47,048 nt of DNA from a virus (lineage: Duplodnaviria > Heunggongvirae > Uroviricota > Caudoviricetes): the IMG/VR virus record IMGVR_UViG_2563366978_000001, one strand, 5' to 3'. Shown piece by piece: positions 5,407 to 46,592 of the stretch. A model generated the notes under the pieces. The model was not told the DNA's origin, made no database searches, and was given only the letters and a program-made list of their open reading frames with translations. How positions within the stretch are numbered: the stretch's first letter is position 1; every line of letters begins with the position of its first letter. The position numbers were made by a program, and so were the translations under genes.

Positions 5407-5598
5407 TTACTCCCCGTTCACCGAAAATTCACGATAGAAACGTTTCCACATACGATAAGTCTGCGCAAATTGTTCACCACGAAACATCGCCTTCCTGGCC
5501 TTCATGTTTTCCTTGTGAGACTTTCGGTCTATGAACCAAAACCATTGATGGAACACACAAAGCAAGAGACACAAAGATAATATCCAATCATTACCCAT
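5407..5598 (-). CDS. Small hypothetical membrane protein, about 63 aa (MGNDWILSLCLLLCVF...)
   Basis: In-frame ATG at 5596-5598 just beyond the repA stop; the longer track ORF would overlap repA. Confidence 0.4.
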   Translation of the reverse strand: MGNDWILSLCLLLCVFHQWFWFIDRKSHKENMKARKAMFRGEQFAQTYRMWKRFYREFSVNGE

Positions 5599-8500
5599 AG
5601 AAAGCGCCCTGCTCTTCGTAGCTGCATGAGCTATTCCCCGTAATGTATTCACGTAACCGCCGCAGCTCATTGCTGGAAAGGTGATCCATGAACTCTGTGA
5701 GGTACAGGGATGCAAACGTCATAGCTATGCTGGCTGATGACCATGATGACATAGTGGCCAACTCCTCACTGGAAAGCGCACTCATCGCCCAGGACTCAGG
5801 TACAGCCACTGGCAACACGGCCAAAGCCTCAGAAATTACTGAATGAGGGGCGTTTTGAACCTGCTCGTTTGTGGATCGCGTTTTATCATCCATATATATA
5901 TTGAGATCCAAATCGCGATCCATTTCGATGGCTGTCTTCTCGGCTTTACGCGTTTTTAGGGTTAGGCCATCTTTCTGACGCTGAACAAGAATATCCAGCA
6001 TAAATGCCGCTGATTCAGGCTCAACAAAACGCAAGGTTGGACGCTTATCGCCGTCTCTGCCGCGACGTTTACCTGTTTTAAGGCCAAGAGAGTCGCAAAT
6101 GTTTTTAAACAACGCTTCCGGCACTTTAGGCTTCCCTTTTGGCGTCATAAAACCACCAATGTGCAGAACGTTATTCAACAGGTCACGGCGTTCGGCTGTC
6201 ATGAGGTTATCTCGAGCGAATTTGAGACGCTCCTGAGTCGCCTCGCCGGTCATAGTCTCAGGGTTGATACCGCAGTCGATAAAGTACTGCCGGAGAGTTG
6301 CTGATTTAAGCGCATAGAAACCGCGCGCCCCGACTTCAACAGTAGGAGTAGCTTTTACCTTGTGATCGATTATTCCAGGGAATTTAGTTTTAAAGACATC
6401 ATCAGCCTGCTCGCGAGTCATCGCGGTCACTACAAAATATTGCCACTGTCCCGCCTGACGGTATGTGTAGGTAAAATTGATGGCTGCTTCTTCCCGGTCG
6501 TAACGACGAGCTGTTACCTCATCTAAAAGCATTGTTTCATAGCGGCGAACTTTGTCTCGAGCACCATCGAAATAGAATTTCAGCGTGCCTTCTTCAACCG
6601 GTAGTTTCAGTTCGTTTTCAATATCCCAGCGGACAAGTTTTGCCTGTTCTTCAAGCGTCAGCGCGCGTTTTTTTAGCAGTTCTTCACGCTCTGATTCTTG
6701 TGGTGTTTCTGTATTGAGGTGCAGATCCAGTGTCTGTTCCCACACAATATCCCGCGCTTCTTTACGCAGATCTTTACCGATATCATTCGCAGCATAATCG
6801 GTGGCCAGCGGTGATACCTTATAACCGTCGCTGTGCATGATGCAGATCATGTTGCTGGCGTAGTCGTTACGCGCAGTCGCTTCAATTGCGGCTGCTTTAA
6901 TTTTCATCCTGGTAAAGTCGGTATTGGCCACCCCCATTGATATACGGTCGCCATCGAAAACGACATCCGTAAGTTCACCGTTCATACCTGCGGTAGCAAG
7001 CAATGCCTGGGCGAATGCTCGTTCTATTTTTTGCGGGTCAGTTTCACGTTTTGCACGAGCTTTATCAAAGCCGATAATAAATTCTTTTGCTGTACGGTCG
7101 CGGCGTAGCATTTGCACTGCATCACTGGGTACAACTTCACCACAGAACATGCCGAAATGACGGTCAAAATGTTTTTGCTCAATCGACACGCCGGATGAAA
7201 TAGACGGGCTATAAATCAGGCCGTCGTATTTTTTGACCATCTTTTTCGGTTGATTGGTAAATGCTTCAACTTCTGGCTCTGGTTTGTTTTTCTGGTTTAC
7301 ACACAGAAATTTCTTACCAGGAAAATGCATTCTCAGGGTGGCTGTCACATCTTCTGCAAAGGTGGAGCTGTCGGTGGCCAACATGATTTTTTCGCCATCC
7401 GATACAGCTTTCACCACCTCGGTCATGATGCGATCTTTTTCTGTATAAAAAACCCGGATTGGCTCACCTGTTTCGCGGTTGCGAACATCAACAGGTAATT
7501 CAATTACGTGGATCTGCAGCCATGCCGGTAAACCTAGTTCTTCACGGCGTTTCATAGCCAGTTCAGCCAGGTCAACCAGCAGATCGTTCGCATCAGCATC
7601 CACCATGATTGGGTGTTGTTCCGTTCTGGCCAGCGCGTCAATTAGCGTATTGAATACAGCCACCGGGTTTTCCATAGCCCGACCGGAAAGAACGGCACGT
7701 AGCCCTTGTGTGGCCTCGTCAAAGCCAAAATAGTCGTGCTGGCGCATCAACGGTTGCCAGCAGTTTTTAACAATCGAGTTTATGCAGATGGTCAGTTTAC
7801 TGGCGTATGGAGCCATTTCCTGATAGCCAGGGTCCTGATAGTGCAGGATATCGGTTTTTACACCTTTTCCTTCTGTCATCATTTCCCACAGGCCACCAAT
7901 AAGGGAAACACGGTGAGCAACAGAGATACCACGTTCTGAGCTATGCATTAAAGGTCGTAACAATCCAGTAGATTTGCCGGAACCCATACCAGCACGAACG
8001 ATGACTATCCCCTGTAGTGATTGCACATACTTCAGGACGTCATCGGTCATTACCGAAGTTTCAAGACGCTTATAGGTGATATGTTGAGGACGTTTATTGG
8101 GATCAGTTATGCGTTCGCTGAATGAGCGCGGAGCCTGGGCAATACGGCACTTTTTATTCAGGCGACGGGCAATGTGGTCTTTTACCGTAGCGCGATAGAT
8201 ATTTTCCAGCCCCATTTCACGCAGAACGATGCAGAACATGTTAAATAAGTCTGACGGACTGTTAGGAACCGGACAGGTTAGCATGCCAATATCCACCGCT
8301 CTCAGCAGCTCTTTGGCAAAAGTACGACGGTTATCCCGCTTAATTGTCTTCAGGCGGTTGAGCGTCAGAGATAGCAAATCAGTGCCGGTTTTCAGGCGGT
8401 TTGCAGTTGCAAACAGTTGACGTGCTGTTTCACGAAGTCCACGCAGTTTGTGCAGGTCGTTGAAGTCACTGCACTCCATTTGCGGATCGTCTTCAAAAGT

Positions 8501-9586
8501 TGGATAGACGCAGCGGACATCGTTGAATTTCGATAAGATTTCATAGCCAGTCCGCAGGCCGGTATTCCCTTTTCCTTCTGTGGCTGATTTCCGGTCATTA
8601 TCCAGTGCGCAGGTGATTTTTGCCGCCGGGTACATGTTTACCAGTTGTTCCACAACATGAACCATGTTATTAGCGGATACAGCGACAACCACAGCGTCAA
8701 AGCGTTTATCTTTTTTCGTGGCAAGCCAGATGGATGCACCAGTAGCAAAACCTTCTGTAACAGCGATGTTTTGCGCCCCTTTTAGCTCACCGATAACAAA
8801 GCAGGCACCGACGAAATCGCCGCTGGTTACGGCGCTGGTCTGGTATTTTCCACCTTGTTTGTCGATTCGCTGCCAACCCACAATACGACCATCGTAACGA
8901 CCGTCCAGGTGAGCCAGAGGGATAGCCATATACGTGGTTGGCCCCCTGCTCCATTTTGCGCTGTCGTGACTGGTCACGCGACGCACATCACACGAATTAA
9001 AAACGTCACGAATACCTTTTTTAATCGCATATGGCCATGAGCCGTCTTCTGCAGGAGCATGTTCCCACGCGCTGTGGAATGCCAGCCATCCCAGCAAACG
9101 TTCATGGTCCATTTGGTTGTTTTTCAGGTCATTAATTCGTTTTTGTTCTTCACGGCGACGACGTGCTTCGGCCTGACGTTCTATTCTTGCCCGTTCTTCT
9201 TCCGGTTGTGCGACCACGGTCGCATTATTCCGTTGTTGCTCACGGCGATATTCAGAAAACAGGAAGGAGAAACCGCTCCATGAGCCAGCATCGCTGCCTT
9301 TATGGACGAAGTTAATGAACGGGTAATCAATCCCTTTGCTGTGTTCCAGCCGGGAGTAAATTTCTACGCGTCCTTTGAGGCTCTTTTCGAGAGCTTCTGG
9401 AGATGTTTTATTGTATGAAGAGTAACGCTCAACACCCCCGCGAGGGTTGAGTTGGATGTTGTCGGAACAGGCAGACCAGTTGATACCAGCCATCTGTGCC
9501 AGCTCGGTTAGTTCATCCCGTGCTGCTTCAATTAGCGAGAACGGATCGCTGCCAAAGCGATCCGCATAGAAATCGTTTAATGTCAT
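5591..9586 (-). CDS. repA: Replication protein RepA (primase-helicase), 1331 aa
   Basis: Single ORF of N15 RepA size (about 1324 aa from memory) in the N15 position between immunity region and telN side. Confidence 0.9.
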   Translation of the reverse strand: MTLNDFYADRFGSDPFSLIEAARDELTELAQMAGINWSACSDNIQLNPRGGVERYSSYNKTSPEALEKSLKGRVEIYSRLEHSKGIDYPFINFVHKGSDAGSWSGFSFLFSEYRREQQRNNATVVAQPEEERARIERQAEARRRREEQKRINDLKNNQMDHERLLGWLAFHSAWEHAPAEDGSWPYAIKKGIRDVFNSCDVRRVTSHDSAKWSRGPTTYMAIPLAHLDGRYDGRIVGWQRIDKQGGKYQTSAVTSGDFVGACFVIGELKGAQNIAVTEGFATGASIWLATKKDKRFDAVVVAVSANNMVHVVEQLVNMYPAAKITCALDNDRKSATEGKGNTGLRTGYEILSKFNDVRCVYPTFEDDPQMECSDFNDLHKLRGLRETARQLFATANRLKTGTDLLSLTLNRLKTIKRDNRRTFAKELLRAVDIGMLTCPVPNSPSDLFNMFCIVLREMGLENIYRATVKDHIARRLNKKCRIAQAPRSFSERITDPNKRPQHITYKRLETSVMTDDVLKYVQSLQGIVIVRAGMGSGKSTGLLRPLMHSSERGISVAHRVSLIGGLWEMMTEGKGVKTDILHYQDPGYQEMAPYASKLTICINSIVKNCWQPLMRQHDYFGFDEATQGLRAVLSGRAMENPVAVFNTLIDALARTEQHPIMVDADANDLLVDLAELAMKRREELGLPAWLQIHVIELPVDVRNRETGEPIRVFYTEKDRIMTEVVKAVSDGEKIMLATDSSTFAEDVTATLRMHFPGKKFLCVNQKNKPEPEVEAFTNQPKKMVKKYDGLIYSPSISSGVSIEQKHFDRHFGMFCGEVVPSDAVQMLRRDRTAKEFIIGFDKARAKRETDPQKIERAFAQALLATAGMNGELTDVVFDGDRISMGVANTDFTRMKIKAAAIEATARNDYASNMICIMHSDGYKVSPLATDYAANDIGKDLRKEARDIVWEQTLDLHLNTETPQESEREELLKKRALTLEEQAKLVRWDIENELKLPVEEGTLKFYFDGARDKVRRYETMLLDEVTARRYDREEAAINFTYTYRQAGQWQYFVVTAMTREQADDVFKTKFPGIIDHKVKATPTVEVGARGFYALKSATLRQYFIDCGINPETMTGEATQERLKFARDNLMTAERRDLLNNVLHIGGFMTPKGKPKVPEALFKNICDSLGLKTGKRRGRDGDKRPTLRFVEPESAAFMLDILVQRQKDGLTLKTRKAEKTAIEMDRDLDLNIYMDDKTRSTNEQVQNAPHSVISEALAVLPVAVPESWAMSALSSEELATMSSWSSASIAMTFASLYLTEFMDHLSSNELRRLREYITGNSSCSYEEQGAFYG
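5873..5922. other. Candidate replication origin inside the 3' part of repA: 8-bp inverted repeat GGATCGCG/CGCGATCC around an AT-rich core with three GATC sites
   Basis: Direct reading; N15-type origins are reported within the 3' part of repA (from memory). Confidence 0.3.
9209..9224. repeat. sopC-like palindrome TGCGACCACGGTCGCA (inside repA); putative centromere site
   Basis: 16-bp core of the palindrome family repeated five times in the window. Confidence 0.55.
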
Positions 9587-10492: not shown

Positions 10493-10741
10493 ATGAGATT
10501 TATTGCTTATAATAACCGCATGAAACCAGAAGAACTTATTCGCCACTTTGGCAGTGTAGAAAAAGCAGCGGCTGGGGTAGGTGTAACACCCGGTGCTGTT
10601 TACCAATGGTTAACCGCTGGAGAGATTCCTTCATTGCGGCAAAGTGATATTGAAGTTCGTACTGCTTACAAGCTGAAGAGTGACTTTACAACTCGGCGGG
10701 TAAAGCAGTCGATTAAGGAGAGCCGTAAGCGTGGAGCTTGA
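10493..10741 (+). CDS. cro: Cro-like small DNA-binding regulator (start may be the second ATG at 10520)
   Basis: Small basic ORF divergent from the repressor; HTH-like GVGVTPGAVYQWL. Confidence 0.75.
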   Translation: MRFIAYNNRMKPEELIRHFGSVEKAAAGVGVTPGAVYQWLTAGEIPSLRQSDIEVRTAYKLKSDFTTRRVKQSIKESRKRGA

Positions 10742-11441
10742 GTATATACGCAGCTGCGTCTCCACGGCATTGGCTGATATTCATTATCGCCAGCGTGGCA
10801 TCCTAGAGGTCCAGCTTGAGCAGATGCGTCTAGGCAGATCAGGACGCTTTAACAATAAACCAGTCCGGTCAATCAGTGTAGGTGATGATAACTCATACGA
10901 AGTGTCCGTTCCTGCTGAGCCGGTTAGATTCCACCAGGGGAAAACATTTAAACAATCATCAATGTTGCTCACTGATATTGATTTTCAGAGCGCCAGCTGG
11001 CGCAGGGCTATTGGTCAGTTGAATAACGAGGAATCAGCTTGGCTTTATTATTGCTACGGATGCAAGCCTGATTACAACAATGATGTGATTGTTTGTCAGT
11101 GGTTATGGCTTGATTTTCTGGTTGCTCATTCGGGGGGCGGCTTTAAAAAAATGAAGGCCTCCACGAAAAAAGCCATGCGGAAATTGATTTATTACGCGGC
11201 ACAGCAGGTTAAATCAGAACTTACGTGTGCTGAGGCAGTTGATGAGAGAGAACAGGACAGGCATCTGAGTTTTCTACTGAATATATCTATTGATAGCTGG
11301 AGACAAGATTATAAAGAACGCTGGCTTTTAATTAAGTCGCGATGTCTGAGCTTAAATCGAACTGCATTATTAAATGCGGCGGAGAAGCGCAGTGAAATCA
11401 TCAAACGCCATCGGGCAGGAAGTGCCATTCTGCCTTTGTAA
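10731..11441 (+). CDS. Hypothetical protein, 236 aa, in the position of the N15 Q-like late regulator
   Basis: ORF directly downstream of cro; function inferred from position only. Confidence 0.5.
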   Translation: MELEYIRSCVSTALADIHYRQRGILEVQLEQMRLGRSGRFNNKPVRSISVGDDNSYEVSVPAEPVRFHQGKTFKQSSMLLTDIDFQSASWRRAIGQLNNEESAWLYYCYGCKPDYNNDVIVCQWLWLDFLVAHSGGGFKKMKASTKKAMRKLIYYAAQQVKSELTCAEAVDEREQDRHLSFLLNISIDSWRQDYKERWLLIKSRCLSLNRTALLNAAEKRSEIIKRHRAGSAILPL

Positions 11442-11445
11442 ACAA

Positions 11446-11694
11446 GTTATGTTCAGGAAACCGTCGAAGCCAGAATTAAGGTATTCGGGGGTAAGAAATG
11501 AATATGTTATCTGGTGTCCAACTTGTGGTTACAGGACACGACCAGATAGTAATAAGCAGTCTGTAATTGCCGATTGGTATTTATCAAATCAGCCAGGTAA
11601 TAAGCATATAGAAAATCTTTGGATTAAGCGTTACTTGGAAATCAGAGAGGGTGCGACCGTGGTCGCACAAGAAAATGAAAATAACGCCATTTAA
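11446..11694 (+). CDS. Small Cys-containing protein (CPTCGY motif), about 82 aa
   Basis: In-frame ATG after the upstream stop; contains one centromere-like palindrome at its 3' end. Confidence 0.45.
   Translation, partial: VMFRKPSKPELRYSGVRNEYVIWCPTCGYRTRPDSNKQSVIADWYLSNQPGNKHIENLWIKRYLEIREGATVVAQENENNAI
11651..11668. repeat. sopC-like palindrome GTGCGACCGTGGTCGCAC; putative centromere site
   Basis: 18-bp palindrome, 8-bp arms with 2-bp centre. Confidence 0.65.
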
Positions 11695-16446: not shown

Positions 16447-16517
16447 AATAACACTGGATGTGTTCGTTTGGCAGAGTTACAGTTCGTGTCATTGAGGGGC
16501 AATAACCCACTAACTAT

Positions 16518-16757
16518 ATGAATTTGGAGGATATTATGAATTATCAAGGTAACGAAAAAATGCGCGACGACGTTGCGGAGATAGCTAACGAACTGTATGA
16601 GTTGTGGCAGAAGGTTGAACGTTTCGAAAAGGAATATGGTTTCAACAGTACCAACCTGGCAGACCGACTGGCTGGTCGCTTAGTTGGGACTATGGGGCCA
16701 AAACTGGCTGAGTTGAACCGCTTTATGGCTGATGTTGATTTCCAGTTTCAAGATTGA
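16518..16757 (+). CDS. Hypothetical protein, 79 aa
   Basis: ORF with RBS GGAGGA. Confidence 0.5.
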   Translation: MNLEDIMNYQGNEKMRDDVAEIANELYELWQKVERFEKEYGFNSTNLADRLAGRLVGTMGPKLAELNRFMADVDFQFQD

Positions 16758-16770
16758 TTAGAGAGGCGTT

Positions 16771-16998
16771 ATGAATATTAATGAAATTCGTGGAAATATG
16801 ACTGAAGCGGCCCTGAGTGTGGAATGTGTTATGCGTGGATACCCACGCATTTCCCTGAAAGAGTTAAGCGAAGCCTGTTTTTTGAGTCAAGCTGCCGTTG
16901 AATTTATCATCGAACAGATGATCTGTTTTGGGGTTGCAAAGCGTAGCGGGTCTGGTCGATATTCTTTGACCGATGAATATAAGCAGGCAACTTTCTAA
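16771..16998 (+). CDS. Hypothetical protein, 75 aa
   Basis: ORF with RBS GAGAGG. Confidence 0.5.
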   Translation: MNINEIRGNMTEAALSVECVMRGYPRISLKELSEACFLSQAAVEFIIEQMICFGVAKRSGSGRYSLTDEYKQATF

Positions 16999-17001
16999 AA
17001 A

Positions 17002-17023
17002 CTGTGCGACCACGGTCGCACAG
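17002..17023. repeat. sopC-like palindrome CTGTGCGACCACGGTCGCACAG; putative centromere site
   Basis: 22-bp palindrome just upstream of the candidate late promoter region. Confidence 0.65.
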
Positions 17024-17107
17024 CACAAAAACGAAAAAGCTTGGCAAAATTACGGTTTTTAGTTATTGTTTTGTTAAGTTGGGTTTTTTGTACCCAACAG
17101 CCAACAA

Positions 17108-17131
17108 GCCGCCTTTATGGCGGTTTTTTTG
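17108..17131 (+). terminator. Intrinsic terminator (GCCGCC-TTTAT-GGCGG then T7); candidate tR'-like terminator of a short leader transcript
   Basis: Stem-loop plus 7-T tract about 60 nt downstream of a putative promoter (TTGGCA-17-TATTGT). Confidence 0.45.
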
Positions 17132-17265
17132 TGCCTGAAAAGTGGGCGCAGGACAAGTTGCAGCTTGTCCTGCGGTCAACCCATGCCAGAGCTATAGGCT
17201 GAACCTAAAGCCCACCCGCGATGCGCATCGCCGGGTTAGCTTACCCAGGCAAAAAAATAATAGCT

Positions 17266-18342
17266 ATGTTCAAAACCACTAATATTCATGGCGCGCAACT
17301 CGTTTGCGCAGATTCTCTGCAATTTATCAAAACCATCCCTGATAACTCGGTCAATTTGATTGCAACAGACCCACCATACTTCGGCGTAAAGGCTAACGCA
17401 TGGGATAACCAGTGGGATAGCGATGCTGACTTTTTGGGGTGGATTGATGAATTTTTGGCAGAATTTTGGCGGATATTGGCCCCTAATGGCAGCCTGTATA
17501 TGTTTACCGGCTCTCGCCTTGCGTCAAAAATTGAATTATTAACTCGCGACCGTTTCAATGTTCTGAACCATATCATTTGGGCTAAACCCAGTGGTATGTG
17601 GCGCGGTTGTCATAAAGAAAGTTTAAGGGCTTATTTTCCTGCCACTGAAAGAATATTATTTGCAGAGCATTACGGCGCGTCAGGTTATGCTAAAGGTCAG
17701 TCAGGTTATGCTTCAAAATGTGCAGATTTAAGAAAAAATATTTTTTCTCCACTAATTGATGCTTTTTCGCTGGCTCGCCGTCAGTTAGATATATCAGCCG
17801 CAGACATTAATTCAGCAACAGGAAAGCAGATGTGTTCGCACTGGTTTTCTTATTCGCAGTGGCGGCTTCCATCATTAAGTGATTTTAATAAACTATGCGA
17901 ATTATTTCGCAGGAAGGCAGATTCACTCGGTGTCCCGTGTCCATATCCTTTTAATGTTGATTATTCAGAACATGAAAAGCGTTATAGCGATCTGAAATTG
18001 CGTTATGAGGAAGTAAAGAAGCAGTATGATGATTTGAAGGCTCAGTATGAAAATTTGCGCCGCCCATTTCATGTTACTGCTGATGTACCTTATACCGATG
18101 TATGGGAGTTTCCTCCTGTGCAATATTATCCTGGCAAGCACCCATGTGAAAAACCTGCAGCGATGATGGAACATATTATAAAAAGTAGTTCCCGCCCCGG
18201 AGATATCGTTGCCGATTTCTTTATGGGATCAGGCTCTACTATTAAAGCCGCGCTGAAGTTAGGTCGTCAGGCAATCGGTATTGAGATTGAGGGTGAACGT
18301 TATCTTCAGACAGTTGATGAAGTGAAAAAGTTATTTGAGTAA
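17266..18342 (+). CDS. DNA methyltransferase (DPPY motif; N6-adenine or N4-cytosine class), about 358 aa, no adjacent restriction enzyme
   Basis: Motif IV ATDPPYFG before motif I FFMGSGST; start taken at the internal ATG 17266, the track ORF starts at 17221. Confidence 0.75.
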   Translation: MFKTTNIHGAQLVCADSLQFIKTIPDNSVNLIATDPPYFGVKANAWDNQWDSDADFLGWIDEFLAEFWRILAPNGSLYMFTGSRLASKIELLTRDRFNVLNHIIWAKPSGMWRGCHKESLRAYFPATERILFAEHYGASGYAKGQSGYASKCADLRKNIFSPLIDAFSLARRQLDISAADINSATGKQMCSHWFSYSQWRLPSLSDFNKLCELFRRKADSLGVPCPYPFNVDYSEHEKRYSDLKLRYEEVKKQYDDLKAQYENLRRPFHVTADVPYTDVWEFPPVQYYPGKHPCEKPAAMMEHIIKSSSRPGDIVADFFMGSGSTIKAALKLGRQAIGIEIEGERYLQTVDEVKKLFE

Positions 18343-20042: not shown

Positions 20043-20062
20043 TGTGCGACCGTGGTCGCACA
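20043..20062. repeat. sopC-like palindrome TGTGCGACCGTGGTCGCACA; putative centromere site
   Basis: 20-bp palindrome. Confidence 0.65.
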
Positions 20063-20262: not shown

Positions 20263-20282
20263 CGTGCGACCGTGGTCGCACG
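20263..20282. repeat. sopC-like palindrome CGTGCGACCGTGGTCGCACG; putative centromere site
   Basis: 20-bp palindrome. Confidence 0.65.
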
Positions 20283-40351: not shown

Positions 40352-42727
40352 ATGGCAGCAGTAAAAATCTCAGGTGTGCTGAAAGATGGTGCGGGAAAAC
40401 CAATACAGAACTGCACTATTCAACTGAAGGCAAAGCGTAACAGCACCACGGTACTGGTGAACACGGTGGCCTCTGAAAATCCTGATGAAGCCGGGCGTTA
40501 CAGTATGGACGTTGAGTATGGTCAGTACAGCGTCATCCTGTGGATTGAGGGTTCTCAGCCATCACATGTTGGGACCATTACCGTCTATGAAGGTTCCTGT
40601 CCGGGGACGCTGAATGATTTTCTCGGTGCCATGACGGAAGATGATGTCATGCCGGAGGCATTGCGCCGTTTTCAGGAAATGGTGGAAGAAGCGGCACGCA
40701 ACGCCGAAGCCGCCTCTCAGAGCGCAGCGGCGGCAAAGAAATCCGAAACTGCAGCGGCATCATCGAAGAACGCGGCGAAAACCTCAGAAACGAATGCAGC
40801 TAACAGCGCACAGGCGGCAGCGACCTCACAGACTGCATCGGCAAACTCCGCGACAGCAGCCAAAAAATCAGAAACCAACGCGAAAAACAGCGAGACAGCC
40901 GCAAAGACGAGCGAAACCAACGCAAAGTCCAGCCAGACGGCAGCGAAAACCAGCGAAACGAATGCCAAAGCCAGTGAAACTGCGGCGAAAAGCAGTCAGG
41001 ATGCAGCAGCCGAAAGCGAGAGCGCGGCAGCTGGTTCTGCGACTTCAGCTGCTGGATCAGCAACTGCTGCGGCTAACAGTCAGAAAGCAGCGAAGACGAG
41101 TGAAACTAACGCAAAGTCCAGCCAGACGGCAGCGAAGACCAGCGAAACGAATGCCAAAGCCAGCGAAACTGCGGCGAAAAGCAGTCAGGATGCAGCAGCC
41201 GAAAGCGAGAGTGCTGCAGCTGGTTCTGCAAGCGCGGCTGCTGCTTCTGCCACTGCATCAGCTAACAGTCAAAAAGCAGCAAAAACCAGTGAAACCAACG
41301 CAAAGGTGAGCGAAACAGCGGCTGCGAACTCAGCGAAAGCATCGGCAGCAAGCCAGACGGCAGCTAAAGCAAGCGAAGATGCAGCCAGAGAGTACGCAAG
41401 CCAGGCTGCGGAGCCGTATAAATATGTCTTACAGCCGCTGCCTGATGTGTGGATACCATTTAACGATTCGCTGGATATGATTACGGGCTTTTCGCCGTCA
41501 TATAAAAAGATTGTTATTGGTGATGATGAAATAACGATGCCTGGCGACAAGGTTGTTAAGTTTAAACGCGCATCGAAAGCAACCTATATTAATAAATCTG
41601 GTGTGCTGACAGAGGCTGCCATTGACGAGCCACGGTTTGAACGTGATGGCCTGCTTATTGAGGGGCAAAGAACGAACTACATGCTCAATTCGGAAAGCCC
41701 TGCCAGTTGGGGGCGATCGTCAAATATGGATGTTCCCGAAACCGGGACGGATAGTTTTGGTTTTACCTATGGAAAGTTCGTCTGTAACGATTCTCTGATT
41801 GGGCAAACCTCAGCCATTAATATGGCATCAATTGCTGCAACAAAGTCAGTTGATGTCTCAGGCGATAATAAACACGTGACAACCTCATGTCGTTTTAAAA
41901 CAGAACTGCAGGTAAGGTTGCGTATCCGGTTTGATAAATATGACGGTAGCGCAACAACTTTTCTTGGTGATGCGTATATTGATACACAAACGCTTGAAAT
42001 TAATATGACAGGCGGTGCTGCCTCAAGGATTACAGCGAGAGTCAGAAAGGACGAAGCTACCGGATGGATTTTTGCAGAGGCAACAATTCAGGCAATTGAT
42101 GGGGAGTTAAAAATAGGCTCTCAGATACAGTATTCTCCTAAGCAGAGCGGGGCAACCGTATCTGGTGACTATATTTATCTGGCCACCCCACAAGTAGAAG
42201 ATGGGCCTTGTGTATCATCTTTTATTATATCAGGAGCGACGGCGGCGACCCGCGCAAGCGATATAGTTACAGTTCCAATTAAGAATAATCTTTATAAGAT
42301 TCCTTTTACGGTTCTTTGTGAGGTACATAAGAACTGGTATAAAACGCCAAATGCAGCGCCACGTGTTTTTGATACCGGCGGTCATCAAACCGGAGCGGCT
42401 ATTATTCTTGGCTTCGGTCGTTCAACAGATTACGACGGATTTCCTTATTGCGATATTGGAGGAGCTAACAGACGGGTAAACGAAAACGCATCGCTTGAAA
42501 AAATGGTTATGGGGATGCGTGTAAAGTCAGAGCAGTCTACGTGCTCAGTAAGTAACGGGCATATATCCAGCGAAACAAAAACCACATGGTCCTGTATTCA
42601 GAACACCGCAATTATCCGTATTGGAGGCCAGACTACAGCCGGGTTACGTCATTTATTTGGTCATGTCAGGAATTTCAGAATATGGCACAAGGCATTGACT
42701 GATGCTCAGGTGGGGGAGTCAATCTAA
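40352..42727 (+). CDS. stf: Side tail fibre: lambda Stf-like N-terminus, repetitive Ala/Ser/Thr-rich shaft, different C-terminal receptor-binding domain (LamG-like motif NFRIWHKALTDAQV)
   Basis: N-terminal about 120 aa match lambda Stf; internal 189-bp tandem repeat; C-terminus unlike lambda. Confidence 0.8.
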   Translation: MAAVKISGVLKDGAGKPIQNCTIQLKAKRNSTTVLVNTVASENPDEAGRYSMDVEYGQYSVILWIEGSQPSHVGTITVYEGSCPGTLNDFLGAMTEDDVMPEALRRFQEMVEEAARNAEAASQSAAAAKKSETAAASSKNAAKTSETNAANSAQAAATSQTASANSATAAKKSETNAKNSETAAKTSETNAKSSQTAAKTSETNAKASETAAKSSQDAAAESESAAAGSATSAAGSATAAANSQKAAKTSETNAKSSQTAAKTSETNAKASETAAKSSQDAAAESESAAAGSASAAAASATASANSQKAAKTSETNAKVSETAAANSAKASAASQTAAKASEDAAREYASQAAEPYKYVLQPLPDVWIPFNDSLDMITGFSPSYKKIVIGDDEITMPGDKVVKFKRASKATYINKSGVLTEAAIDEPRFERDGLLIEGQRTNYMLNSESPASWGRSSNMDVPETGTDSFGFTYGKFVCNDSLIGQTSAINMASIAATKSVDVSGDNKHVTTSCRFKTELQVRLRIRFDKYDGSATTFLGDAYIDTQTLEINMTGGAASRITARVRKDEATGWIFAEATIQAIDGELKIGSQIQYSPKQSGATVSGDYIYLATPQVEDGPCVSSFIISGATAATRASDIVTVPIKNNLYKIPFTVLCEVHKNWYKTPNAAPRVFDTGGHQTGAAIILGFGRSTDYDGFPYCDIGGANRRVNENASLEKMVMGMRVKSEQSTCSVSNGHISSETKTTWSCIQNTAIIRIGGQTTAGLRHLFGHVRNFRIWHKALTDAQVGESI

Positions 42728-44436: not shown

Positions 44437-45426
44437 TTAGTTATTTTTTACATCGGAAGAATTTCCAAACGCCTCCTCAAGAATAGATTCAATTTTACTC
44501 ATTAGGTGCGATGGTATTTTTCTGTTATCTAATTTTAATGTTGTGAAATTTTTCCCATATTTCGCCACAACACCGTCTCCATATTTCTTTTCCCTTTTCT
44601 CTCCATGTGAATTGTTTTTCTCAACAATAATGAAATCATGAAGAGCCTGTATTATTCTTTGCGCATCTAAACTTTCACCTGATTTTTTCATCCTCAGCAA
44701 CTGAGATGCAGCATTTTTCATGGCTGCTTCCTGTCCCTGATATGCTTTAAAAAGAGCGTCTCCTGCTCTGGCTGATAACTCACCAGGATGGTTAAATATT
44801 GCCAATATATCTTTAGGTAAACCGGCTGTATTAATACATCGGCTGATAATATTTCTATCCACGCCTTCGGCTTCAGCTAAAGATTTTACGTTACCGTCAA
44901 ATTCATGGAGCCTTCGCAGGTATCTTTTCCCCCTTTCATAGGCGCTGATAGGTCTATAGTCGTTGCCTATCTGCGATAACCATTGCATTTGTTCATCATC
45001 TAAATCGCCAATAAGAACACGATAATCGCATCCAGTTATAATGGCTGCTTTACGTCTTCGAGAACCATCAGCTACTTCAACAATACCTGACACTTTTCTT
45101 GCGAAAGCCGGATTTTGTTGCCCAGAAGTTAGAAAAGATGGAATTAAATCAGCTAGAGAAGATTCATTTAATAAATCTTGATCACGCTCATTACCTAGCC
45201 ATACCATTGTTGCCATTTCTACTTTATCTGCGGGGATCGTTTCTAACTTAAAGTTAACATTACGTCCGCATACTGGCAAAGTTATGCTATTACCGGTTAA
45301 TGAACTCAGTTGACGTTTTAAATCACCAACCATAGGTGATACCGGCTGATGTTCAGGTGCATGATGATTATTACTCATAATGCGATTAATATCCGGAGCA
45401 TTTTTTAGAAGAGAGCGTTGTTTCAT
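44437..45426 (-). CDS. sopB: Partition protein SopB (ParB family)
   Basis: 329 aa; conserved block ITLPVCGR...SGNERDQ...DGSRRRKAA...GNDYRP as in F SopB. Confidence 0.95.
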   Translation of the reverse strand: MKQRSLLKNAPDINRIMSNNHHAPEHQPVSPMVGDLKRQLSSLTGNSITLPVCGRNVNFKLETIPADKVEMATMVWLGNERDQDLLNESSLADLIPSFLTSGQQNPAFARKVSGIVEVADGSRRRKAAIITGCDYRVLIGDLDDEQMQWLSQIGNDYRPISAYERGKRYLRRLHEFDGNVKSLAEAEGVDRNIISRCINTAGLPKDILAIFNHPGELSARAGDALFKAYQGQEAAMKNAASQLLRMKKSGESLDAQRIIQALHDFIIVEKNNSHGEKREKKYGDGVVAKYGKNFTTLKLDNRKIPSHLMSKIESILEEAFGNSSDVKNN

Positions 45427-46592
45427 TCTTCGTTCTCCCAGCGAGGTTTTATTAGATCATCAAAAATTTCTCGACAAACAGGGTCCCATATAGAGACGGC
45501 ATTTCTCCATGCATTAAGTGTTGAACGCTGGTTTGCCGCTTGTTCAAATACTGTTCGCATTTTTATCTGACCTTTACCTACTTCATCGGTAACGCGTACA
45601 ACCTGACGTAATACCATTGATCCCCATGTATTTCTTATTTGCTCTTCCATCCATCGTGATTGATTTCCTGTAGTGAGACTATATTTAGTCAGAAGCAAGC
45701 GAACGGTCGGCTCAAATCCGCCTAGGTCAACGCTTTCTAGGAGATCGAGAAGCATTGTGAAAAACTGTAGAACAGAGGCGTAATCAAATAATTCTGCAGG
45801 GGTAGCAACAACGATAACGTCAGCTGCGCAAACAACGTTAATGGTTCCTGTACCGAGGTTTGGAGCACTATCTATAACGATAACATCGTAGTTATCCCAA
45901 ACTGATTCTATAGCTGCGCGTAGCATCAGGTGAGGAGGGTGAGGCAATTTACCCTGAGCATGATATTGCATGAGATCTGTTTCTATACGGTGTAAAGCTA
46001 GGCAGCTAGGAATAATGTCCAGTCCAGGCCAGCATGTTGGTTTTATAGCATATTCAGCGTTATCGCGTTCGCCCAAGTAAAATGGCAGTAAAGTATCCTC
46101 GGCATGTATATGTAAATCAGGTACATAACCGTGATACATGGAGGCTGTTCCCTGAGGATCGTTACCTTCAACTAAAAGAACACGATGACCTTGTAATGCT
46201 AGCCATTGTGCCTGATGTACTGCAGACGATGTTTTATAAACGCCGCCTTTGTGTGACATAACAGCAAGCACAACTGGGTTTTTATCTTGTGGCCGTTGGT
46301 TTGGGTTGCCAAAAACAGCTCGCATACTATTGATTTGATCTATGGTATAACCGGCACGACGTTCAACTCTTCCTCTCATTTCAAAGTCAGGTGCAGGTAA
46401 ACGCCCGTTCTTCTCAGCATCTCTTATTGCTTGAGGAGTTACACCAATTAAATCTGCTACTTCAGTTATCCCCCATCTACGCGTGATACGCCGAGCTTCA
46501 GGACTATCATCACCGAATTGAGCTATAGCAATTGCTTGGGTCATTTCTTGACCGCGCGTAACACAATCTTGTAATAACTTTTTCAAAGACAT
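45423..46592 (-). CDS. sopA: Partition ATPase SopA (ParA family)
   Basis: 389 aa; Walker A KGGVYKTS and long blocks identical to F SopA. Confidence 0.95.
   Translation of the reverse strand: MSLKKLLQDCVTRGQEMTQAIAIAQFGDDSPEARRITRRWGITEVADLIGVTPQAIRDAEKNGRLPAPDFEMRGRVERRAGYTIDQINSMRAVFGNPNQRPQDKNPVVLAVMSHKGGVYKTSSAVHQAQWLALQGHRVLLVEGNDPQGTASMYHGYVPDLHIHAEDTLLPFYLGERDNAEYAIKPTCWPGLDIIPSCLALHRIETDLMQYHAQGKLPHPPHLMLRAAIESVWDNYDVIVIDSAPNLGTGTINVVCAADVIVVATPAELFDYASVLQFFTMLLDLLESVDLGGFEPTVRLLLTKYSLTTGNQSRWMEEQIRNTWGSMVLRQVVRVTDEVGKGQIKMRTVFEQAANQRSTLNAWRNAVSIWDPVCREIFDDLIKPRWENEE

Follow-up and report, generated by a model that had tools for sequence, protein, structure and literature searches.

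In phage lambda, late transcription begins at the pR'-qut-tR' unit, in which a constitutive-looking sigma70 promoter is followed by a short terminated leader and then by the late lysis genes, and in which the hexamer AACGAT is a sigma70-dependent pause element that serves as the Q loading point. In N15, p52 has reportedly been identified as the late promoter by Northern blots and lacZ fusions, a Q analogue is said to antiterminate there, terminators lying between p52 and the first open reading frame (ORF), and two of the centromere inverted repeats (IR), IR2 and IR3, reportedly stimulate late transcription together with SopAB, IR3 acting in cis. Here we describe the corresponding region of the 47,048-nucleotide IMG/VR virus record IMGVR_UViG_2563366978_000001 (Caudoviricetes), the whole of which is called the window below. 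An initial annotation had proposed a candidate late promoter with a short terminated leader between 17040 and 17235, and had likened the layout to the lambdoid pR'-qut-tR' unit. This is supported by orthology to the N15 late-promoter region, which also means that the unit was already known. The region is very probably the late-gene control unit of an N15-type telomere phage-plasmid because of this orthology, the annotations in the GenBank and phiKO2 records, the presence of a Q82-family protein, the gene context and the centromere sites. The control unit itself is not new, being annotated in GenBank and, reportedly, experimentally characterised in N15.

The late promoter and its terminated leader

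Alignment of positions 16990-17290 with N15 (AF064539, 41124-41421) revealed 82% identity, and the -35, -10 and rho-independent terminator of the GenBank record, which stand in N15 upstream of gene 52 (methylase) and gene 53 (holin), lie at aligned positions. The phiKO2 record likewise has a 'putative late promoter' and a terminator annotated at the aligned positions, and the promoter hexamers of the window fall on the -35 and -10 features of both records. The order of parts is also that of N15, running from the IR palindrome through the -35, the -10, a hairpin, the terminator and the leader to the methylase and the lysis genes. The parts up to the terminator are as follows.

17002-17023: SopB-binding palindrome CTGTGCGACCACGGTCGCACAG, ortholog of N15 IR3 by alignment with it
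17041-17069, plus strand: late promoter, ortholog of N15 p52, with -35 TTGGCA, a 17-nucleotide spacer and -10 TATTGT
17075-17083, plus strand: TAAGTT+GGG box, 5 nucleotides past the -10, candidate sigma70-dependent pause or Q-loading element
17078-17098, plus strand: hairpin H1 (GTTGGGT / ACCCAAC), from RNA folding, overlooked in the initial annotation
17106-17130, plus strand: intrinsic terminator (tR' analogue) with the G+C-rich stem AAGCCGCC-TTTAT-GGCGGTTT, 8 pairs and T7

A promoter scan placed the two promoter hexamers at 17041-17046 and 17064-17069, as had been proposed, and the terminator previously noted at 17108-17131 was essentially right, the scan giving a stem at 17106-17126 and the T7 at 17124-17130. 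Each taken alone, the promoter, the terminator and a 14-base pair (bp) palindrome located farther downstream are within chance expectation: the window contains 8 promoter-like sites (6.3±2.6 in shuffles), 2 terminator-like sites (3.9±2.0) and 5 perfect 14-bp palindromes (2.8±1.7). We judged the features to be real because they are conserved and covary, not because they are rare.

For conservation we gathered 116 orthologous leaders from annotated phages and plasmids, IMG/VR, GTDB genomes and metagenomes, with N15, phiKO2 and PY54 included; a first, generic anchor search had returned mostly unrelated terminators, which were removed by a BLAST filter. All 116 leaders have the same order of parts, namely centromere palindrome, promoter, CTAAGTTGG box, H1, terminator, a leader of about 135 nucleotides and the methylase ATG, and the distance from the palindrome to the ATG is nearly constant at 269-274 nucleotides. 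In both the N15 clade and the phiKO2 clade the -35 never varies. When the window is compared with N15, conservation peaks in the post-terminator leader, with 92% identity against 48-82% for the flanking genes; with PY54, only the start-to-terminator and leader segments can still be aligned among the upstream parts. A sequence search with 16500-17800 found 100% identity to Escherichia phages YDC107_1 and PhiR46_1; the other relatives of this segment are telomere phages of Enterobacter, Klebsiella (phiKO2-like) and Yersinia (PY54), and 210 plasmid records match it, with Klebsiella and E. coli predominating. True orthologs of the late-promoter region were found only in N15-like elements of Enterobacterales. 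The idea of a more widespread element was dropped: an anchor made of the terminator tail and TGGGCGC matched Pseudomonas, Kordiimonas, Halomonas, Shewanella and a metagenome-assembled genome of Myxococcota, the sequence downstream of these matches was dissimilar, and we ascribe them to chance. The window differs from N15 in belonging to the YDC107_1/PhiR46_1-type lineage and in its -10, TATTGT in place of TATCTT.

Transcription would start at about 17076. The box at this point, TA(A/T/C)G(T/C)T and then GG, is kept in all clades, including PY54, whose Q protein is only 31% identical, and such conservation across divergent Q proteins would fit an element directed by the host sigma factor better than a Q-specific site. 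The geometry resembles that of lambda, where 6 nucleotides separate the -10 from AACGAT GGG, the window having 5 nucleotides and then TAAGTT GGG, and by this analogy the box may be a sigma-dependent pause at which Q loads.

In H1, mismatches among the orthologs are G.U in 22 cases and A.C in 3, with pairing kept, and the terminator, which is present in all orthologs, has a near-invariant stem with 3 G.U and 0 A.C mismatches in 22 variants. Since the mismatches are of the G.U and not of the A.C type, both H1 and the terminator are read as acting in plus-strand RNA. Consistent with this strand, the folding z-score of the short leader (17076-17131) is -4.69 on the plus and -2.78 on the minus strand. 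One relative departs from the common plan: IMG/VR 3300036846_000707 has, at about 6250-6360, unrelated sequence ending in a hairpin, CTGAGTCCGGTACAGTACCGGACTCAG, in place of the late promoter, H1 and the terminator's 5' half. The replacement has the appearance of a mobile element inserted in the loop of the terminator, and the downstream leader is intact.

A comparable product is known from Shiga-toxin phage, whose pR' gives rise to the small RNA StxS (PMC7547250). Here too a constitutive late promoter with an immediate terminator would yield a hairpin-plus-U-tail RNA, from 17076 to 17130; the 55-nucleotide RNA differs from StxS in having no evidenced trans target, and its Rfam matches were all below threshold. 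In lambda the terminated RNA is longer, about 194 nucleotides as against about 55 here, and the lambda unit also differs in that here a partition site flanks the promoter and a conserved, structured leader of 135 nucleotides extends past the terminator.

The Q antiterminator and the centromere sites

The initial annotation had nominated the protein encoded at 10731-11441 as a candidate for permitting read-through of the terminator, and the domain search assigned it to a Q antiterminator family. This gene and the centromere site beside it are placed as follows.

10731-11441, plus strand: Q antiterminator gene of the Q82 family (PF06323, 283 bits, E=2e-84)
11651-11668: IR2-like centromere site, an exact match to the palindrome core, 210 bp past the Q stop codon

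PF06323 is the Q82 family (PMC9388147), so that the protein is distinct from lambda Q, which belongs to PF03589, and the likeness to lambda lies in read-through by a Q protein, assigned here by orthology and family. The Q of the window shares 67% identity with N15 gp40 and 31% with its PY54 counterpart, and 82-type Q proteins, that of Gifsy-1 among them, reach 26-29%. N15 shares with the window the Q family, the location of Q about 6 kb upstream and the centromere site next to Q. In the PY54 clade, the q gene of P840 prevents lysogeny when supplied in trans from a plasmid (PMC10612081).

The palindrome at 17002-17023, already taken for a centromere in the initial annotation, is far beyond chance, because its 18-bp core occurs five times in the window (9208-9225, 11651-11668, 17004-17021, 20044-20061 and 20264-20281) with 0.02 occurrences expected. 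It fits the N15 IR consensus given in PMC7205306, where the IR3 sequence is printed in Table 4, and the equivalent palindrome of the phiKO2 record is annotated 'putative plasmid partitioning site'. N15 is described with four IRs and the window has five copies; those at 20044 and 20264 are 220 bp apart and lie between the lysis genes and terminase, near the expected cos. The gap between the 17002-17023 palindrome and the -35 is 17 bp. In PY54-type clades a different palindrome, TGGGACCNNGGTCCCA, stands 7-8 bp upstream of the -35 and is dispersed in 2-5 copies per locus. Because the adjacency of partition site and late promoter persists in clades with two different centromere sequences, it supports a selected functional link between partition and late transcription and argues against accident. 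The N15 scheme, in which a distant Q82-family antiterminator serves a promoter flanked by a partition site, appears common to a large family of enterobacterial phage-plasmids.

From these elements we propose that the p52-type promoter at 17041-17069 fires, as a sigma70 promoter, from about 17076 and that RNA polymerase meets the -10-like TAAGTT+GGG at the start, where a sigma-dependent pause would allow Q to load. Without Q, polymerase would stop at 17106-17130, releasing an RNA of about 55 nucleotides made up of H1 and the terminator hairpin. After induction of this YDC107_1/PhiR46_1-type phage, the Q82-family protein would let polymerase read through, and the transcript would contain the 135-nucleotide structured leader followed by the methylase, the holin-lysozyme-Rz genes and the packaging and virion genes. 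The SopB palindrome at 17002-17023 and the second site near Q, at 11651, would be expected to aid late transcription, as is reported for N15.

Several observations weigh against this reading. The promoter matches the consensus at 9/12 positions, which by itself is no better than chance. Q does not lie beside its promoter as in the lambdoid cassette: with the Q stop at 11441 and the -35 at 17041, 5.6 kb and about 12 ORFs intervene. The definition of the Q-dependent late regulatory cassette includes a Q gene directly before the transcription unit, a Q-binding element, a terminator and late genes (PMC9388147), and of these the locus has the Q gene, the terminator and the late genes, the Q gene being non-adjacent, as it is in N15. 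A Q-binding element was not identifiable in the region, the Q82 family offering neither a defined site to search with nor a relative of solved structure. Moreover, the qut geometry could not be transferred from the 82-type late regions, since Gifsy-1 and E. coli PPompW have no such box and are not homologous here. These regions resemble the window in the Q family (26-29% identity) and in a promoter followed by a strong intrinsic terminator, and they differ in that Q adjoins the promoter, in having neither a centromere site nor a homologous leader, and in missing the TAAGTTGGG box at the start, PPompW having a -10-like GATATT farther downstream. A separate likeness to PPompW lies in its terminator tail at 1640-1670, GCGGGTTTTGTTGTGCC, which is similar to the tail of the N15 type, GGCGGTTTTTTTGTGCC, perhaps through a common preference behind the U-tract or else by chance.

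A conserved fold beyond the terminator

As a late promoter alone the region would matter little, and the one unexpected item is the strand signature of a fold that follows the terminator. The initial annotation had listed two 'extra palindromes' here. Both are present where they had been placed: the hairpin at 17147-17174 has arms (17147-17160 and 17161-17174) that are 93% complementary and form 10-12 pairs as RNA, and the sequence at 17218-17231 is a perfect 14-mer palindrome. They are not independent DNA palindromes, however, but appear to be parts of one conserved, covarying single-strand fold (17142-17231), which includes a long-range pairing of 17142-17147 with 17210-17215 that had been overlooked. 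The fold has these helices.

17142-17215: three-way junction with S1 GTGGGC (17142-17147) paired to S4 GCCCAC (17210-17215)
17148-17157 / 17164-17173: hairpin 2, inside S1:S4
17187-17189 / 17199-17201: H3, a weak 3-bp helix inside S1:S4
17218-17231: H4, the 14-bp palindrome GCGATGCGCATCGC, with a 5-bp stem and a GCGC loop, upstream of the methylase start

Hairpin 2 occurs in 23 sequence variants among the 116 leaders with pairing retained, and differs from that of N15 at 3 pairs. S1:S4 reads ATGGGC/GCCCAT in 58 leaders, GTGGGC/GCCCAC in 56 and has an A.C mismatch in 2; a proximal pairing of S1 with ACCCAT (S3) was rejected, since S1 covaries with the distal S4 and not with S3. The H4 stem covaries between clades (GCGAT/ATCGC, GCTG(A)TT/AACAGC and GCTGAT/ATCAGC). 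A covariance model built from the phiKO2 clade aligned 33 distinct leaders from all clades, and in this alignment, which is thereby fitted to the model, 92.9% of the cells of the four helices are paired compared with 74.1% in shuffles, none of 500 shuffles equalling it. Both sides vary in 18 of the 27 pairs, and the covariation score is 0.425 as against 0.137 in shuffles and at most 0.114 in slid controls. These data bear on the possibility that the hairpin and the 14-bp palindrome are duplex DNA sites for dimeric proteins, for example one that regulates the late operon or the methylase. Both elements are indeed inverted repeats and most clades keep TGCGCA at the centre of the 14-bp palindrome, but the sequence of hairpin 2 is not conserved while its complementarity persists, which is the signature of a single-strand fold, and neither a cruciform nor a duplex would show the strand bias in mismatch type described below; we therefore regard duplex sites as very improbable. 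None of 17 Rfam matches reached its gathering threshold, the best being AgrB with 27.3 bits against 40. In the Yersinia phages PY54 and P840, hairpin 2 (GCTGCGACCACGTGGGACCGTGGTCACAGC) includes GGGACCGTGGTC, which reproduces 12 of the 14 bases in the core of these phages' centromere palindrome and may be a coincidence or a degenerate partition site; hairpin 2 of the window bears no such resemblance to its centromere palindrome.

To judge which strand uses the fold, we compared the mismatch types. An ungapped hairpin search over the 116 leaders (23 variants) counted 227 Watson-Crick pairs, 0 G.U and 20 A.C in hairpin 2, and the model-based alignment gave 0 G.U and 26 A.C at its internal pairs. 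The A.C mismatches represent 7 combinations of site and type in several clades, and the compensatory routes pass through them (C-G to C.A to T-A, and A-T to A.C to G-C). S1:S4 has 0 G.U and 2 A.C mismatches, while the weak H3, of 3-4 bp, has 9 G.U and 2 A.C. Because A.C on the plus strand equals G.U on the minus strand, the unexpected pattern of hairpin 2 hints at use of the strand opposite the late mRNA. A mutation bias does not account for it, as the late region is slightly G-rich on the plus strand, which predicts G.U, and H1, 60 nucleotides away, shows the reverse pattern. Raw folding energy, which favours the minus strand in 42 of 43 leaders, was discarded as a criterion, because that strand is G+T-rich and the whole-leader z-scores do not differ between the strands. 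A strand difference in z-score was seen only for a landmark-defined interval, 17231 to 17138, where the composition-controlled values for the minus and plus strands were -4.93 and -3.51 in the window, -2.99 and -1.76 in phiKO2, and -3.69 and -1.77 in PY54.

One explanation, possible yet tentative, is that the fold is a cis-antisense RNA of about 94 nucleotides, transcribed leftward from a weak or extended -10 and ending at about 17138 or at the terminator, if that is bidirectional. Its candidate parts are two.

17243 to 17238, minus strand: invariant hexamer TAAGCT, candidate -10
17231 to 17138, minus strand: hypothetical antisense RNA of about 94 nucleotides with a 5' hairpin H4', the three-way junction and a U-run, both ends being predicted

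Transcribed from its own weak promoter towards the late promoter, with the terminator in between, such an RNA would match the leader of the late mRNA with full complementarity, and it could plausibly guard lysogens against leakage of the late (lysis) genes. What favours it is the 20-26 A.C against 0 G.U in hairpin 2 with compensatory paths through A.C, the likewise A.C intermediates of S1:S4, the opposite pattern in H1 (22:3) and in the terminator (3:0), the G-rich plus strand, which makes mutation bias predict G.U instead, and the composition-controlled z-scores of the window, phiKO2 and PY54. In addition, each of 40 distinct leaders has the hexamer in the form TARGCT, its T1, A2 and T6 never varying, although it is part of a stem in one clade and of a loop in another. 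It lies at a fixed 6-7 nucleotides from the first base of H4' and 96-100 nucleotides from the end of S1', beyond which come 2-6 U. The G at -14 of this candidate minus-strand promoter is invariant, and TGn is found in all clades except that of N15 and the window. The proposal is weakened by the lack of a canonical -35 and, in the window/N15 clade, of the TG of an extended -10, by a U-run of just 2-6 nucleotides that is 6 nucleotides away from hairpin 2, and by the lean of H3 to the plus strand (9 G.U against 2 A.C). Furthermore, the two strands hardly differ in consensus-fold energy, composition explains most of the minus strand's lead in raw energy, and not all of the A.C events are phylogenetically independent. 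Other minus-strand candidates were discarded: promoters within the methylase gene (ATG+55, +301 and +389) lie in coding motifs and are not conserved in N15 or phiKO2, and no conserved minus-strand ORF runs over the leaders. A search for trans targets of the antisense RNA within the phage gave only chance-level matches of 9-11 nucleotides.

The fold could equally act on the plus strand, in the late mRNA leader, as a processing or stability element such as an RNase III site, as a second terminator-like or pause structure, or in translational control of the methylase. We consider this a real possibility, and the two explanations stand roughly level. Given the orthology with N15, the plus strand is certain to be transcribed in lytic growth, the folding z-score of 17070-17270 on that strand is -4.26, the covariation-supported fold forms equally on either strand, H3 carries G.U on the plus strand, and the length from palindrome to ATG is held constant. 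The N15 study is also said to mention two terminator-like sequences ahead of the first ORF, and the methylase has no obvious Shine-Dalgarno sequence. Yet a hairpin selected on the plus strand should tolerate G.U, of which hairpin 2 has none against 20-26 A.C, and hairpin 2 has no U-tract on that strand. Translational control would be a weak reason for such conservation, moreover, as the methylase tolerates insertion in P840 and is thus dispensable (PMC10612081).

The minus-strand signature might also come from a single-stranded DNA function, such as a priming or single-strand initiation signal in lytic replication. G.T is the best-tolerated mismatch in DNA hairpins as well, so that the same asymmetry would arise, and a clear minus-strand promoter was not found in the region. 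Against this, the N15-type RepA has its own primase (Toprim match), rightward forks from repA would presumably expose the plus strand as the lagging template here, and we know of no precedent in N15-type phages; a single-stranded DNA role is accordingly rated as quite unlikely.

If the antisense RNA exists, it would restrain late and lysis expression of N15-type phage-plasmids at the RNA level, a brake that is not known to have been described and that was recognised here only through a strand-specific, wobble-type mismatch pattern. A convergent small RNA would then add a further control of the lysis genes in elements that are now widespread in Klebsiella and E. coli.

The first late gene and the rest of the window

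The genes downstream of the promoter, all on the plus strand, are those of the methylase, holin, lysozyme, Rz and terminase Nu1, in keeping with the methyltransferase and lysis genes named in the initial annotation. The gene context used above, together with the genes that characterise the window as a whole, is as follows.

17266-18342, plus strand: DNA adenine methyltransferase, first late gene, start ATG 17266 (PF01555, E=1e-46)
149-2050: protelomerase (TelN) with TelK domains
5591-9586, minus strand: RepA-like primase of 1331 amino acids with a Toprim match
44437-45426: SopB (SoPB_HTH)
45423-46592: SopA (ParA-type ATPase)

The window also encodes a CB-type repressor, Cro and a Gp49/HTH toxin-antitoxin pair. 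Because protelomerase, SopA/SopB, RepA, CB, Cro, Q and the late genes are all encoded, we take the window to be a complete N15-like linear plasmid-prophage.

Two annotations were corrected. The start of the methylase is read as ATG 17266, which is conserved in all clades, and not as the annotated 17221, which lies inside the palindrome, the in-frame extension to 17221 being shut by stop codons in phiKO2 and PY54; with the start at 17266 the 14-bp palindrome is non-coding. The second concerns the ORF 17041-17202, called a 53-amino acid 'hypothetical protein' in PhiR46_1, which has no family match, covers the promoter, terminator and hairpin 2, and loses its frame through indels in N15; this ORF is almost certainly spurious. 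In N15 itself (AF064539) the start of gene 52 is deposited at 41621 (284 amino acids), while the ORF is open for 362 amino acids from the conserved ATG at 41387, so the deposited start is probably too far downstream. The methylase lacks a recognisable Shine-Dalgarno sequence; CAAAAAAATAATAGCT precedes its ATG (17250-17265), and an A-rich tract stands there in other clades too. Within the methylase gene, positions 17731-17748 carry AGAAAAAATATTTTTTCT, an 18-bp perfect A+T palindrome that is the longest perfect palindrome of the window.

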